From sequence record HM035024: a stretch of DNA of 50,661 bases, one strand, 5' to 3'. The position numbers were made by a program, and so were the translations under genes. Within the stretch, counting starts at the first letter, position 1. Each line of letters begins with the position of its first letter. The notes under the pieces were generated by a model. The model saw only the letters and a list, made by a program, of their open reading frames with translations, ran no database searches and had not been told where the DNA came from. Of the stretch, positions 1,272 to 49,548 are shown piece after piece. This DNA comes from Shigella phage Shfl1.

Positions 1272-1739
1272 ATGACGACCATTACCGTATTTCTGGCCAA
1301 AGATGAACTGGACGACGAAATGTCATTCTTCGCGTTCGAGCATAAAACCGGATCGCACTGGCACACGTACACTCATTACACGGTCATCGCAATTGAGGCT
1401 TACGACGGCGATTTCACTGACAAGCTGAGTAATTTTATTGAAGCGGTTAAGGCCAGTGATGGTTGCGAGTGGAAAGAAGATCACGAAGTTATGCGAATGT
1501 ATGAGATGATCAATCCGGTTCGCCTTGAGTCTTTCGAGCTGGATTCGAATGTTGGTATCAAGGTGAGAAAGTCGGGTGAGTTATTGCCAGGGATGCGTGT
1601 GCTGACTGGTTACTCAGGGCGTAAGGTATGGCGCACTGTATCCAAGATTCGCCAGCGATCGGCAACATGCTACAGCGTATTCTTTGAAGATGGCTGGAAT
1701 ATGCTTTCAGGCAGTGAAGTGAAGTATCTCACCAAATAG
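1272..1739 (+). CDS. hypothetical protein (155 aa)
   Basis: ORF tightly packed 2 nt after previous stop; same strand as early gene train. Confidence 0.55.
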   Translation: MTTITVFLAKDELDDEMSFFAFEHKTGSHWHTYTHYTVIAIEAYDGDFTDKLSNFIEAVKASDGCEWKEDHEVMRMYEMINPVRLESFELDSNVGIKVRKSGELLPGMRVLTGYSGRKVWRTVSKIRQRSATCYSVFFEDGWNMLSGSEVKYLTK

Positions 1740-1755
1740 CACGAACTGTTAAAAC
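1736..1755 (+). promoter_or_regulatory. conserved motif ATAGCACGAACTGTTAAAAC with TATAGT 18 nt downstream
   Basis: TGcTATAGT at 1774-1779. Confidence 0.5.
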
Positions 1756-1821
1756 AGGATCTGGGTATCTTGCTATAGTTACCACATTGAAACGCTTCGG
1801 GGCAAACCCAAAAGAAGGAAG

Positions 1822-1904
1822 CGGCAAACGTAGACCGGAGCCGCGCAAACCTCGAAGCAAATTGACTTGGGAAAACCCATTAGGAAGGAAGGGGCAAACG
1901 TAGA
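1822..1904 (+). repeat. direct repeat GGCAAACGTAGACCGGAGCC (two copies) in a long 5' leader
   Basis: Copies at 1822-1841 and 1885-1904, each preceded by GAAGGAAG-like purine tract. Confidence 0.8.
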
Positions 1905-1957
1905 CCGGAGCCTCGGAACCCCAGGTTAAAAATGATGTACCAATCAGAGGAATCACC

Positions 1958-2188
1958 ATGTCAATCGTCAAGAACCAGCAAGCCATCGATTCAACCAATA
2001 ACAACCGCTTTGCCATTTTCATCACGTCTATAGGTCGACGCTTTGCAGTCAAGGCCGTACCGGGCGGGTACAAAACATACATGGAAGATAACGGAAAGTG
2101 GGTGTGGTGCGAAAACCTTGCAAACTTCCTGGTATGGAACGCAGACCTCCAGGGCTTTGACGATATCAGCACTTTAATTGAGGAATAA
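1958..2188 (+). CDS. hypothetical protein (76 aa)
   Basis: ORF preceded by conserved leader ACCAATCAGAGGAAT. Confidence 0.5.
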   Translation: MSIVKNQQAIDSTNNNRFAIFITSIGRRFAVKAVPGGYKTYMEDNGKWVWCENLANFLVWNADLQGFDDISTLIEE

Positions 2189-2194
2189 ATAATC

Positions 2195-2422
2195 ATGCCA
2201 CATTACAGCAGCCTAACCAAACTGACCCGAGTCAACGGGCACATGATCCCGGCAAAATCCACTCACTACGCAATGGGCGCAAAACACGGAGTCTATTTCA
2301 AGTGGCGCGGTCAATGGAACTTCACGGCTGTGAACAATTTCTATATGCGCGTTCCTGGCGATGACCCGCAATCGGTAGTAGAGAACTCAATCGGCGACAA
2401 CAAGATCGAGGTGCTGAAATGA
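2195..2422 (+). CDS. hypothetical protein (75 aa)
   Basis: ORF with GAGGAA RBS 10 nt upstream. Confidence 0.5.
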   Translation: MPHYSSLTKLTRVNGHMIPAKSTHYAMGAKHGVYFKWRGQWNFTAVNNFYMRVPGDDPQSVVENSIGDNKIEVLK

Positions 2423-2529
2423 ACTTCAATACAATTGCATTATGGTCTGCCGTCTGGTTCTTCTGCATGGGTCACGCCATTGTTAGGATCGTAATCATGT
2501 TACTACTGTGTGCCGGAGCGTTCGAATGA
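2419..2529 (+). CDS. putative 36-aa hydrophobic peptide (MNFNTIALWSAVWFFCMGHAIVRIVIMLLLCAGAFE)
   Basis: ATGA start/stop overlaps at both ends link it to flanking genes; not in the ORF track (below 60 aa); hand translated. Confidence 0.25.
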   Translation: MNFNTIALWSAVWFFCMGHAIVRIVIMLLLCAGAFE

Positions 2530-2699
2530 TGCGCATTCTGATTTGCATGATGGCGGCAGTCGCCATAACTATCCTGGCTGTATCCGGTTGTGTGGAGGTA
2601 AAAGAGCGATGCCACGAAACCGGGAACCAGGTTACTACGTTCGTGATGGTCGGCAACGTATTGCTACCAATCACATCAAATGAGATCACTTGCGAATAG
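2526..2699 (+). CDS. small putative lipoprotein (57 aa precursor)
   Basis: N-terminal hydrophobic signal followed by lipobox-like LAVSGC; GGAG 10 nt upstream of internal ATG at 2526 (track ORF 2508..2699 trimmed). Confidence 0.45.
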   Translation: MMRILICMMAAVAITILAVSGCVEVKERCHETGNQVTTFVMVGNVLLPITSNEITCE

Positions 2700-2708
2700 G
2701 ATTTAACA

Positions 2709-2900
2709 ATGTCTGATTTTATGCACCAAATGATTGCAGTATTCAAAGGCAGTGATGATGAGGAGGTTAAAGAGTGCTTTAACGTTGACAAGTCTTATAA
2801 CGCGTCACTAACCAGCTTTGGTAATATCTCATTGCTTGATGATAATGGCGATCCCTGGATATTCGACGAAGACACTGATTGCTTCGAGATTAAAGAATAG
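2709..2900 (+). CDS. hypothetical acidic protein (63 aa)
   Basis: ORF with AGGA RBS; Asp/Glu-rich. Confidence 0.45.
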   Translation: MSDFMHQMIAVFKGSDDEEVKECFNVDKSYNASLTSFGNISLLDDNGDPWIFDEDTDCFEIKE

Positions 2901-2916
2901 CACTTTTTGTTAAAAC
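2897..2916 (+). promoter_or_regulatory. conserved motif ATAGCACTTTTTGTTAAAAC with TATAGT 18 nt downstream
   Basis: TATAGT 2935-2940 inside inverted repeat GGGGTT/AACCCC. Confidence 0.5.
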
Positions 2917-2970
2917 TCAATATCGGGGTTGCGATATAGTAACCCCATCAACAACGAACGAGGATTTATC

Positions 2971-3177
2971 ATGAAACTGCGGTGCATTGAATCAAATCAA
3001 ATTAACTACTCAGAAGGCTTCGAATATGTCGCTCAAATCGATAGCTTTACAAACAAAAACGGAGAGGTTATTGATGTGGTTCATGGAGTGTATACGTGGT
3101 TCTACTTTGACAAGAAAGCGCTAACAGCAACTAAGCGCAATGGTGATGTGGTGGCTAAATTTAAACGTGAACAATGA
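2971..3177 (+). CDS. hypothetical protein (68 aa)
   Basis: Start trimmed to ATG at 2971, preceded by CGAGGA RBS and conserved CATCAACAACGAA leader. Confidence 0.5.
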   Translation: MKLRCIESNQINYSEGFEYVAQIDSFTNKNGEVIDVVHGVYTWFYFDKKALTATKRNGDVVAKFKREQ

Positions 3178-3187
3178 GGACGATAGC

Positions 3188-3676
3188 ATGAAAATTAAAT
3201 TACTGAGCAATGGCGGTTACAAAGGCTTTACTCGCGATCTGGAAGCTGACCCTATCGTGGTTGACGCGGTGAAGCGTGATGATAGCTTGGGCGGCTACCG
3301 CGTTAAGGTTGACGACCTGGTTAAAGCTGGAGTGTACGATCTTGACTATGGGCTTTCGGTTAGCCCTGTATTTGGTCCGGCTGACTTCAACGAGAAAGAC
3401 GGAACGATGTTCTTCTTCGAATGGGAAGTCCTGGCAAATCCTAGACCGCGCAAGGTTCGACTTCTCAACAATGGCGGCTACCCGATGCGACCAGGTTATG
3501 AGAACCGCACGTTCCCGGTTATCGTGGACTTTACCGAAATCACTAACAACTTGGTCTACGTCAGCAATGAGCATCTCCAGGCTGTAGGATTCACTGGCGG
3601 TATGCATAAAGAGAGTTTGTGCTTCGTTCGCGAAGAAATGCCCGGTTACTATTCTGAGTGCGAGTTGGTTTACTAA
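3188..3676 (+). CDS. hypothetical protein with internal duplication (162 aa)
   Basis: Start trimmed to ATG 3188 (GAGGA RBS); two NGGY-containing repeats (LLSNGGYKGF / LLNNGGYPMR). Confidence 0.6.
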   Translation: MKIKLLSNGGYKGFTRDLEADPIVVDAVKRDDSLGGYRVKVDDLVKAGVYDLDYGLSVSPVFGPADFNEKDGTMFFFEWEVLANPRPRKVRLLNNGGYPMRPGYENRTFPVIVDFTEITNNLVYVSNEHLQAVGFTGGMHKESLCFVREEMPGYYSECELVY

Positions 3677-4858: not shown

Positions 4859-5493
4859 AATTTGAGTGCGTATCAAGTAGCGGATCTGGTTTCAAGTGGG
4901 GTAAGGTCTACGAAGGCGCTCGCGTCAATGACAATAGATTCGTCATCACGGATGAGCGCGGTAGAAATGTTAACGTTGTCCGGCGTCACGAATACCAGGA
5001 AATACTCCTTCCGTATGGCGGTAGCTCAAAATATATCTTCCATCGAATCGTGGATGGTGTTAAATTTAAAGACGTAATCGAAGCAATCAACCAACTGCAT
5101 AATAAAGAGGTCAAATTTATGAAATTCGAATGTATCAGTGATAACACCAAAAAATTTACCGTTGGCAAAATCTACGATGTGCCTACTGAGCACGCAAAGC
5201 ACACTGTAGCACTGACCGACGACACGGGCCGCCACCGCATTGCAACCGTAACGCACAACGGTGAAGGTCTTCGCTGGAATAGCGGCGGCACTAAATTCGC
5301 AACGTTCGGCAAGAAGCGCAAGCGTACTTTCTGCGTCAATGGCAAGGTTACAGCGAACAAGATCCACAACGTCAAGCCGTCAGAAGTTTACCGTAAGCCA
5401 GCGACGAAGTTTGAAGAGAAGGCAGATTTGTCTGGTCTGGCTATCGCTCTTGTTCTCCTTGTTGCTTCGATTTCGCTGCTGTTCATCATGTAA
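4855..5493 (+). CDS. membrane-anchored protein with tandem repeated domain (212 aa)
   Basis: Two copies of a KFEC(V/I)S...GK(V/I)Y module; C-terminal hydrophobic helix LSGLAIALVLLVASISLLFIM. Confidence 0.55.
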   Translation: MKFECVSSSGSGFKWGKVYEGARVNDNRFVITDERGRNVNVVRRHEYQEILLPYGGSSKYIFHRIVDGVKFKDVIEAINQLHNKEVKFMKFECISDNTKKFTVGKIYDVPTEHAKHTVALTDDTGRHRIATVTHNGEGLRWNSGGTKFATFGKKRKRTFCVNGKVTANKIHNVKPSEVYRKPATKFEEKADLSGLAIALVLLVASISLLFIM

Positions 5494-5500
5494 TGCTAAT

Positions 5501-5534
5501 GGGGAATCGGCTCTGAACGGTTCCCCTTTCTTTT
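5501..5534 (+). terminator. intrinsic terminator
   Basis: Hairpin GGGGAATCGG...CGGTTCCCC followed by TTTCTTTT. Confidence 0.5.
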
Positions 5535-5641: not shown

Positions 5642-5860
5642 ATGGCTACTATCATGACAGCAGAAGATGCAGCACACGATGCAGTGGAAGGGATGCGCCC
5701 AAATAGCTCCAGAATCGCCCACTACTACAAATCTGATGTGTCGGCAGTGCAATTGGTCCATGAAATTTTAAGGCTCCCACAAGTCGATTCAGCGCGCGTG
5801 GTGACGTGCTTAAAAAATTATTTTTGCATCACTATTAAAACGAATAGCACGAATTGCTAA
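5642..5860 (+). CDS. hypothetical protein (72 aa), doubtful
   Basis: ORF only; its 3' end runs through the conserved promoter motif at 5844. Confidence 0.25.
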   Translation: MATIMTAEDAAHDAVEGMRPNSSRIAHYYKSDVSAVQLVHEILRLPQVDSARVVTCLKNYFCITIKTNSTNC

Positions 5861-5863
5861 AAC
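5844..5863 (+). promoter_or_regulatory. conserved motif ATAGCACGAATTGCTAAAAC with TATGAT 18 nt downstream
   Basis: TATGAT 5882-5887 inside inverted repeat AGGGGAAT/ATTCCCCT. Confidence 0.5.
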
Positions 5864-9641: not shown

Positions 9642-9650
9642 TAAATACTA

Positions 9651-9673
9651 ACCCGCTTCGGCGGGTTTTTTTA
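9651..9673 (+). terminator. intrinsic terminator
   Basis: ACCCGCTTCGGCGGGT followed by T7. Confidence 0.7.
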
Positions 9674-37214: not shown

Positions 37215-37235
37215 GTAGCACTTTTTGCTAAAAAC
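37215..37235 (+). promoter_or_regulatory. conserved motif GTAGCACTTTTTGCTAAAAAC upstream of helicase, divergent from HTH regulator gene
   Basis: TATTAT about 18 nt downstream (37253-37258). Confidence 0.45.
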
Positions 37236-48500: not shown

Positions 48501-48518
48501 TTTAACAAAAAGTGCTAT
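48501..48518 (-). promoter_or_regulatory. conserved motif (minus orientation)
   Basis: Reverse complement ATAGCACTTTTTGTTAAA; TATAGT (plus 48475-48480) within inverted repeat GGATGG/CCATCC. Confidence 0.45.
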
Positions 48519-49529: not shown

Positions 49530-49548
49530 TTTTAACAAAAAGTGCTAT
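49530..49548 (-). promoter_or_regulatory. conserved motif (minus orientation) overlapping 3' end of methyltransferase-like gene
   Basis: Reverse complement ATAGCACTTTTTGTTAAAA. Confidence 0.4.

Follow-up and report, generated by a model that had tools for sequence, protein, structure and literature searches.

In the genome of Shigella phage Shfl1 (HM035024; the window, by which we mean the whole analysed stretch of 50,661 nucleotides (nt)), the distance from the start of a promoter-associated motif to the start codon is 70-83 nt elsewhere and 221 nt at the gene that starts at position 1958 (gene 1958), which raises the question of what the additional leader sequence contains and what it does. 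The leader holds two tandem copies of a conserved, strand-specific structured RNA. This RNA is an accessory element exchanged between unrelated enterobacterial phages, which we take to be virulent lineages, and it is always located just after an early promoter. A role as operator or riboswitch of one particular gene is improbable. The reading that we tentatively favour is an autonomous, horizontally exchanged early RNA that is its own payload and would act via a trans factor that recognises its invariant nucleotides.

The leader of gene 1958 contains two three-way junctions

The unusual length of this leader, a duplicated 20-nt element within it and a purine tract before each copy had all been pointed out in the original prediction, and these observations held. 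The 20-mer GGCAAACGTAGACCGGAGCC was found as two exact copies, both on the + strand, at 1823-1842 and 1893-1912. No third copy was present in the window even at 3 mismatches and none of 100 shuffles had any match, placing the duplication far beyond chance. The positions first given for the copies (1822-1841 and 1885-1904) have to be shifted by 1 and by 8, which gives a spacing of 70 nt. The purine tracts are AAAGAAGGAAG at 1811-1821 and AGGAAGGAAGG at 1882-1892. The copies belong to a larger repeat of 53 nt (1799-1851 and 1869-1921, 70 nt apart) with 79% identity, and the 20-mer, first taken for the whole element, is actually most of a hairpin (P2) inside a three-way junction of 60-68 nt. The features of the locus are as follows (MFE, minimum free energy).

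1737..1753, + strand: promoter-associated motif TAGCACGAACTGTTAAA, one of about 25 copies of TAGCAC-N4-TGYTAAA
1771..1779, + strand: extended -10 TGCTATAGT, read from the sequence
1792..1933, + strand: accessory block of about 141 nt in the leader, from alignment with relatives
1794..1858, + strand: unit W1, three-way junction (covariance model 58.4 bits, E=5e-15; same fold in the MFE structure)
1794-1802/1850-1858, + strand: W1 closing stem P1; 1803-1807, junction strand J1; 1808-1809/1817-1818, P1a
1821-1825/1840-1844, + strand: W1 P2 stem; 1845-1849, junction strand J2/1
1821..1844, + strand: W1 P2 hairpin, with a 5-bp stem, AAA/GA internal loop, 2-bp CG/CG helix and pentaloop UAGAC; holds the 20-mer at 1823-1842
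1862..1929, + strand: unit W2, three-way junction (covariance model 57.0 bits, E=1e-14; same fold in the MFE structure)
1862-1871/1920-1929, + strand: W2 closing stem P1; 1872-1876, J1; 1877-1878/1887-1888, P1a
1891-1895/1910-1914, + strand: W2 P2 stem; 1915-1919, J2/1
1891..1914, + strand: W2 P2 hairpin, stem GGGGC/GCCUC, in which a G-U pair replaces a C-G pair of W1; holds the 20-mer at 1893-1912
1946..1951, + strand: ribosome-binding site (RBS) AGAGGA of gene 1958, read from the sequence
1958..2188, + strand: gene 1958, 76 amino acids (aa), PHROG 11449, hypothetical protein, outside the RNA module

The -10 of the gene 1958 promoter ends at 1779, and its TATAGT is at the same offset as in the other motif copies; transcription of the leader is predicted to start near 1786. 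When a covariance model derived from the structural alignment of the units was run with filters off, exactly two copies were found in the window and the next best match scored 10 bits. The differences between W1 and W2 in P1 and P2 are compensatory or wobble changes.

The statement that the leader lacks an open reading frame (ORF) was formally incorrect, given a 38-aa ORF with a TTG start at 1787-1903, and was correct in substance. A protein-coding function was rejected: the TTG has no RBS, the ORF is not conserved, the 70-nt spacing is not a multiple of three and disrupts the frame, and the substitutions are compensatory rather than synonymous.

Covariation on the transcribed strand

Folded singly, 19 units gave a near-uniform three-way-junction architecture. 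From 5' to 3' a unit consists of the closing stem P1, a 4-5-nt A-rich strand (CAAAC or AAACA), the hairpin P1a, a linker AA, the hairpin P2 and a strand G(A/C)AAA leading back into P1, in total about 60-68 nt. The sequence of P1 is free and P1a is variable, and P2 is built from a covarying 5-bp stem, AAA opposite GA, an invariant 2-bp CG/CG helix and the pentaloop UAGRC. Two types of unit could be distinguished: type A has a real P1a of 4-6 bp, and type B has CC...GG around a purine-rich loop with a conserved CAAACCC before it. Type A is followed by type B in TH27, Msk, SP-126 and L099, the window has B followed by B, and single units are of type B in Webervirus and of type A in TS33.

For the structural alignment, 19 units from 12 phage sequences were padded with N so that MAFFT preserved the columns. 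Standard pairs were found in 97.5% of the cells compared to 68% in column shuffles and 29-46% with slid partners, and the observed value was not matched in 500 shuffles on any measure. Changes on both sides were seen in 18 of 23 pairs, a count that is biased for P1 and P1a because their alignment was structure-guided. The alignment of P2 needs no judgement since this hairpin is flanked by invariant nucleotides, and there 4 of 5 stem pairs were changed on both sides with 98.9% of the cells paired; the pairs seen were GCGGC/GCCGC, GGGGC/GCCUC, GCGGU/ACCGC, GUUGC/GCAAC, GUGAU/AUCAC and GCGUU/AACGC. RNAalifold applied to a plain MAFFT alignment of 17 units also returned P2 including the mini-helix (compensatory changes in 4 of 5 stem pairs, no pair broken), and for the 11 type-B units it recovered the entire junction (9/16 pairs compensatory).

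The structural alignment contained 13 G-U cells versus 1 A-C cell, which indicated that the + strand RNA is the selected molecule, and the + strand is the transcribed strand in every carrier phage. A palindrome acting at the DNA level is thereby ruled out. Structure prediction and covariation with related phages had been suggested as a check on the leader, and the conserved fold that they revealed strongly supports the earlier proposal of a functional RNA element within it. The thermodynamic stability of the leader was not unusual (z = -0.9).

Conserved nucleotides

The P2 segment AAACGUAGRCCGGA and the A-rich junction strands were almost invariant. In the alignment 10 columns were invariant and several more nearly so, all of them in the P2 loop region and the junction strands: the linker AA, the G that opens P2, the strand GxAAA, the AAA, CG and UA of the 5' half of the P2 loop region, and the CG and (G)A of its 3' half. 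At one internal-loop position there was apparent non-canonical covariation (A opposite G, G opposite A, G opposite U). The stems were wholly replaced between lineages while this core stayed. Stems that are replaced around kept loop and junction nucleotides suggest specific recognition and exceed what a generic stabiliser would need.

Several explanations of the conserved loop were rejected. Kissing of two P2 loops via the palindromic ACGU or CCGG was excluded, as K64-1 unit b has lost both palindromes and L099 unit a has lost one of them, with the internal CG/CG pairing unchanged throughout. The kink-turn, CsrA GGA sites, the sarcin-ricin loop, 4.5S RNA and the L11-binding domain, compared by eye, had only short words in common with the RNA, and the conserved positions did not fit. 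Similarity or complementarity of the loop to 16S, 23S and 5S rRNA was at best 10-11/14, equal to that of shuffled queries.

An accessory block in the Tunavirus leader

Shfl1 is a T1-like siphovirus (Tunavirus, Drexlerviridae), whose genome the window covers completely or almost so. When 1 kb around the leader was used as query, 57 Escherichia/Shigella phage records matched with 78-93% identity, and the units were found to lie in a discrete block between the early promoter and the RBS of gene 1958. The block is present in the window, ECO104 4-5-2 and ULIM2, and cleanly absent from SH6, SH2 and ADB-2. Of the 57 Tunavirus-like records with matching flanks, only 2 have the block, and ECO104 4-5-2 and ULIM2 are also the only Tunavirus-like carriers among 50,697 phage records. 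In the relatives without the block the promoter, the RBS and gene 1958 are otherwise conserved and the leader is of normal short length. The block was more similar than its flanks to the corresponding sequence in both carriers (97.4% versus 89.9% in ULIM2; 91.3% versus 87.2% in ECO104).

Distribution across phages

Relatives of the element were found by sensitive blastn with the window element and then with successive queries. The same 50,697 phage records contained 16 carrier records representing about a dozen distinct phages, all infecting Enterobacterales and belonging to three unrelated lineages (Drexlerviridae, Guernseyvirinae and the jumbo Alcyoneusvirus). The carriers outside Tunavirus, to which one contig from the pattern scan of IMG/VR is added, were:

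Salmonella phage FSL SP-126 (Tlsvirus): two copies
Klebsiella/Enterobacter phages Solomon, F20 and VAC2 (Webervirus): one copy
E. coli phage TH27 (Nouzillyvirus): two copies
E. coli phage Msk/OzMSK (unclassified Caudoviricetes in the record): two copies
Hafnia phage TS33 (Guernseyvirinae): one copy
jumbo Klebsiella phages K64-1, RCIP0023 and Muenster (Alcyoneusvirus): two copies
uncultured contig L099 (pattern scan of IMG/VR): A then B units

In Muenster the element is located inside the terminal repeat.

Pattern scans of IMG/VR, JGI metagenomes and GTDB genomes gave no further members beyond SP-126, F20 and L099. The other pattern-scan matches were chance or REP-like (repetitive extragenic palindromic), without P2 complementarity, or within ORFs, and three 25-bit covariance-model matches (L121, L136 and L147) were rejected as they are located in an apparently uninterrupted coding frame. 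No counterpart was found by blastn in 5,426 complete E. coli genomes, prophages included, or in the PLSDB plasmids.

None of the 4,227 covariance models of Rfam 15 matched anywhere in the window at the gathering threshold, and at E<10 no match overlapped the units, either in the region searched in the window or in seven related loci. ARAGORN found no tRNA or tmRNA genes in the window. Full-text literature searches on the core sequence, T1-like structured RNAs and phage RNA decoys turned up no description of the motif. The motif is an RNA family that fits none of the known ones, although the kind of function may be ordinary.

A REP or BIME (bacterial interspersed mosaic element) origin was also considered and rejected. 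Such elements consist of GTAG and a subsequent imperfect palindrome, and the host has hundreds of copies of them. Only the 10-mer GTAGGCCGGA is common to both, the 3' strand of P2 is without the REP palindrome, and there was no blastn match in the E. coli genomes. The G-variant of the P2 loop (e.g. Solomon (L007) and TH27 (L086)) has the 10-mer GUAGGCCGGA with which enterobacterial REP-like sequences start (GTAGGCCGGATAAG...; L095 and L096, Escherichia/Enterobacteriaceae chromosomes). The P2 loops in the window read GUAGACCGGA (1831-1839 and 1901-1909), with A replacing G and the remainder unlike REP. The resemblance between the P2 loop and REP-like sequences is probably a coincidence.

Genomic context of the units

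In every carrier phage the first unit starts within roughly 20 nt (2-20 nt) of the -10 of an early promoter, so that the units lie essentially at the 5' end of an early transcript. The genes downstream have nothing comparable in common: they are hypothetical proteins of seven PHROG families, of which only one recurs, in Solomon and TH27. No neighbouring protein common to the carrier loci, which would be a candidate partner, was found. Msk has, one after the other, a promoter, a leader, units A and B, a complete second promoter with leader, and then the gene; similarly, the two units of K64-1 have their own promoter and another promoter follows them.

The original prediction had listed a translational operator of gene 1958 among the possible functions, and this is disfavoured by the diversity of the seven downstream families and by the second promoters in Msk and K64-1. 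It is further disfavoured at the window locus itself, where the RBS and AUG are predicted to be unpaired and the RNA is absent in 55 of the 57 relatives, which keep the gene and the leader. The other functions that it had listed, a small RNA or an RNA-processing module, appear compatible with the sequence data.

In Webervirus the RNA alone forms an indel, with flanks that matched in 232 relatives; among the matches listed, the stretch covered by the two matched pieces is about 73 nt shorter in the relative than in Solomon. The RNA unit of Solomon (L007) is flanked by CACACCAACAA, a perfect direct repeat of 11 nt that copies the leader start (1185-1196 and 1264-1274, p=0.002), and the related phage Sushi has one copy of CACACCAACAA and no RNA. 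The repeat looks like what is left of a second promoter-leader unit that has been lost, or else is a target-site-like duplication. As a general signature of the element, flanking direct repeats were rejected, as they were significant in Solomon alone.

Four further observations concern the carrier loci. In OzMSK (L087; 1394-1636) the coding sequence is annotated from a GTG that lies within the second promoter motif; the sequence favours the ATG at 1442 as the real start, with a normal leader and RBS before it. In K64-1 (L085), region 1230-1375 just upstream of the units has a second promoter-like site (TTGACG-N17-CATAAT) followed by about 100 nt without an ORF, and several 23-50-aa 'hypothetical proteins' annotated there look spurious; the region may be a cluster of small non-coding RNAs. 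The gene after the RNA in K64-1 (1676-2176) encodes an H-NS N-terminal domain, and the one in L099 (9780-9962) resembles ribosome modulation factor weakly and below threshold (Pfam RMF, E=2e-4).

Possible functions of the RNA

If the RNA is autonomous and horizontally exchanged, as we favour, the element would be a promoter-plus-RNA cassette that in Shfl1 has been fused into the leader of gene 1958, and the RNA would be made in quantity within the first minutes of infection. A trans factor would specifically recognise the invariant nucleotides, that is, the upper part of P2 and the junction adenines. Most probably this factor would be a host protein that E. coli, Salmonella, Klebsiella and Hafnia have in common, which is the simplest candidate given that the carriers share hosts but no genes. 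The RNA might then serve as a decoy, a sponge or a recruiting RNA, to which two copies would add avidity, and would not be a regulator dedicated to gene 1958.

Several points weigh against this reading. The sample comprises about 12 independent lineages, and P1 and P1a were aligned with structure in mind. A flanking direct repeat is significant only in Webervirus, being suggestive in TH27 (p=0.10) and not significant in the window. There is no terminator marking the 3' end, so the RNA may stay on the mRNA and act in cis. In 6 of 8 contexts an RBS lies 22-33 nt downstream of the element, which also fits a leader function. Finally, small-molecule aptamers and ribozymes just as typically have conserved nucleotides at their junctions.

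A possible, though doubtful, role of the RNA is in anti-defence. Abundant early in infection, it would act as a decoy or sponge and titrate, through its invariant P2 loop and junction, a protein of host immunity or RNA surveillance or else a nucleotide immune signal, and the promoter-plus-RNA cassette would have spread among unrelated virulent enterobacterial phages. Promoter-proximal tandem RNA repeats are known from type III antitoxin RNAs and phage pseudo-ToxI, which some phages use as accessory counter-defence. The antitoxins (ToxI/CptI/TenpI) and pseudo-ToxI have near-identical, pseudoknotted repeats of 34-45 nt that are homologous to a host or plasmid locus beside a toxin gene, whereas the units described here are three-way junctions of 60-68 nt with a spacing of 70 nt and 79% identity, have no E. 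coli or plasmid counterpart and are not followed by a ToxN-like gene. Another phage-encoded early non-coding RNA built around a three-way junction is the pRNA of phi29, which differs in being 117-174 nt long, essential and present in all phi29-like phages; the present RNA, of about 65 nt, is an accessory element found in 2 of 57 close relatives and lacks an Rfam match.

To our knowledge, few conserved non-coding RNAs have been described in virulent coliphages and none in the T1 group. The present one is unusually well supported for so few sequences, as three helices have been compensatorily replaced around an invariant core. Being mobile between phage families and predicted to be among the first transcripts of infection, it has the pattern expected of an agent of host takeover or counter-defence, roles for which almost only proteins are known so far. 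The element is small (141 nt) and cleanly deletable, and the natural relatives without it define the exact wild-type junction; the phage grows on standard E. coli hosts, which makes the question of the binding partner directly testable.

We consider it unlikely that the units form a cis-regulatory leader, i.e. a riboswitch-like tandem aptamer or a translational operator in which a ligand or protein bound at the junction alters the translation or stability of the downstream mRNA. The location in the 5' untranslated region between promoter and RBS agrees with this idea, as does the spacing of the RBS in the six contexts mentioned above. The tandem aptamers of the glycine riboswitch and of the glutamine glnA RNA of cyanobacteria and cyanophages are likewise small junction folds with invariant junction nucleotides, often duplicated in a 5' leader. 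The present RNA is unlike them in having no Rfam match even at E<10, to riboswitches or otherwise, no expression platform and no consistent downstream family. In the MFE fold of the whole leader the RBS and AUG are unpaired (AGAGGA at 1946..1951 is also conserved in the relatives without the insertion), no terminator hairpin follows the units, and no terminator-like site was found on the + strand at 1930-3350. The downstream genes are unrelated, the element is bypassed by a second promoter in Msk and K64-1, and the same gene is kept in relatives without the element.

The leader also contains a 10-nt sequence, AUUGACUUGG at 1861-1870 (linker and 5' strand of W2 P1), that is complementary in 9 of 10 positions to CCAUGUCAAU at 1956-1965 over the start codon of gene 1958 and could pair with it, as a cis-acting leader might. 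Sequestration of the start codon was rejected when no equivalent was seen on reading the leaders of Solomon, SP-126 and TH27; given this absence in three other carriers, the pairing is probably due to chance.

Still less likely is a modifier of host RNA polymerase acting from the nascent RNA, analogous to HK022 put, that would suppress pausing or intrinsic or Rho-dependent termination in cis on the early operon. The element always follows an early promoter immediately and in the sense direction regardless of the following gene, and all carriers infect Enterobacterales, in which RNA polymerase is highly conserved. The put sites sit at PL and PR of a temperate lambdoid phage, and put binds the zinc-binding domain of the beta-prime subunit of RNA polymerase and suppresses pausing and termination. 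The put RNA is a two-stem structure (PMC9378689). The two systems are alike in that putL and putR are structured RNAs of about 65-70 nt placed directly downstream of an early phage promoter in sense orientation, independent of the identity of the downstream gene and requiring no dedicated phage protein, as proposed here (PMC9378689). They differ in that the two stem-loops of put are without a closing helix, whereas the three-way junction is closed by the covarying stem P1, is often in tandem, occurs in virulent phages, and is dispensable in close relatives (55 of 57 with the same operon). There is also no evident terminator that would need read-through. New promoters recur about every 1 kb in Shfl1 and the first strong + strand terminator is at 5501, past three further promoters, leaving little to antiterminate. 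The RNA lacks a defining feature of each of put, the tandem riboswitch aptamers and pseudo-ToxI.

It is improbable that the units are a generic 5' stabiliser against 5'-end-dependent decay, or an RNA-processing module in which A/U-rich linkers serve as RNase E sites that release the units. P1 begins a few nucleotides past the predicted 5' end in every phage, and the linkers AAAUUGA and UUAAAAAUGAUG are A/U-rich and single-stranded, in keeping with such a role. The leaders of ompA and of T7 phi10 similarly have a stable helix within a few nucleotides of the mRNA 5' end. For those stabilising stem-loops the helix alone is needed, while here the loop and junction are invariant and the helices change; a stem would suffice for stabilisation, with no need for an invariant 14-nt P2 loop region and invariant junction strands, and the unremarkable stability of the leader given above also speaks against this role.

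To the same small extent we credit an RNA that binds a small molecule in trans, for instance one that sponges up a nucleotide immune signal, or a self-cleaving ribozyme of a new type. The size and conservation pattern are aptamer-like, and the early promoter and the accessory distribution in virulent phages would suit such a role. Among known aptamer and ribozyme families there is no match, there is no indication of a ligand, and the lengths and sequences of the junction strands do not fit the hammerhead core.

A feature of the DNA, whether an operator present twice, a miniature transposable element bounded by inverted repeats, a REP-like sequence or a duplication by chance, is essentially refuted by the covariation: P1 does resemble terminal inverted repeats, the Solomon copy has its flanking 11-nt direct repeat and the P2 loop has GTAGGCCGGA in common with the REP-like sequences beside the chance matches L095 and L096, but the supposed inverted repeats vary between copies and yet remain complementary, the internal stems covary with a G-U over A-C excess that is sensible only for a + strand RNA, no copies exist in the E. 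coli genomes or the plasmid collection, and the exact 20-mer is far beyond a chance duplication.

Promoter motifs and other features of the window

The Shfl1 genome is laid out in short gene cassettes, each preceded by the repeated promoter-associated motif and then an extended -10. With up to 2 mismatches, TAGCAC-N4-TGYTAAA gave 28 matches in the window against 2.3 expected. Copies are located for example at 1001-1017, 1737-1753, 2898-2914, 5845-5861 and 37216-37232 on the + strand and at 49531-49547 and 48501-48517 on the - strand. The 17-nt motif is followed about 20 nt later by the extended -10 (TGnTATAGT) and stands ahead of most short cassettes in both genome arms; it also holds the stop codon of the preceding gene (AAATAG).

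At the locus corresponding to window position 1736, ADB-2 (L004; 530-940) has an extra 86-aa gene between two copies of the promoter motif. This bracketing suggests that the repeated promoter-leader sequences are recombination points for swapping RNA or protein cassettes.

Near the left end of the window, upstream of the first gene, 120-340 is very AT-rich with short TATATA/ATAGATA repeats and might be part of a packaging or terminal region. The strong terminator at 5501 is a terminator-like hairpin (5501-5526) after the gene that ends at 5493, and a bidirectional terminator-like hairpin with T-runs on both strands is located at 9650-9667 (AACCCGCTTCGGCGGGTT).

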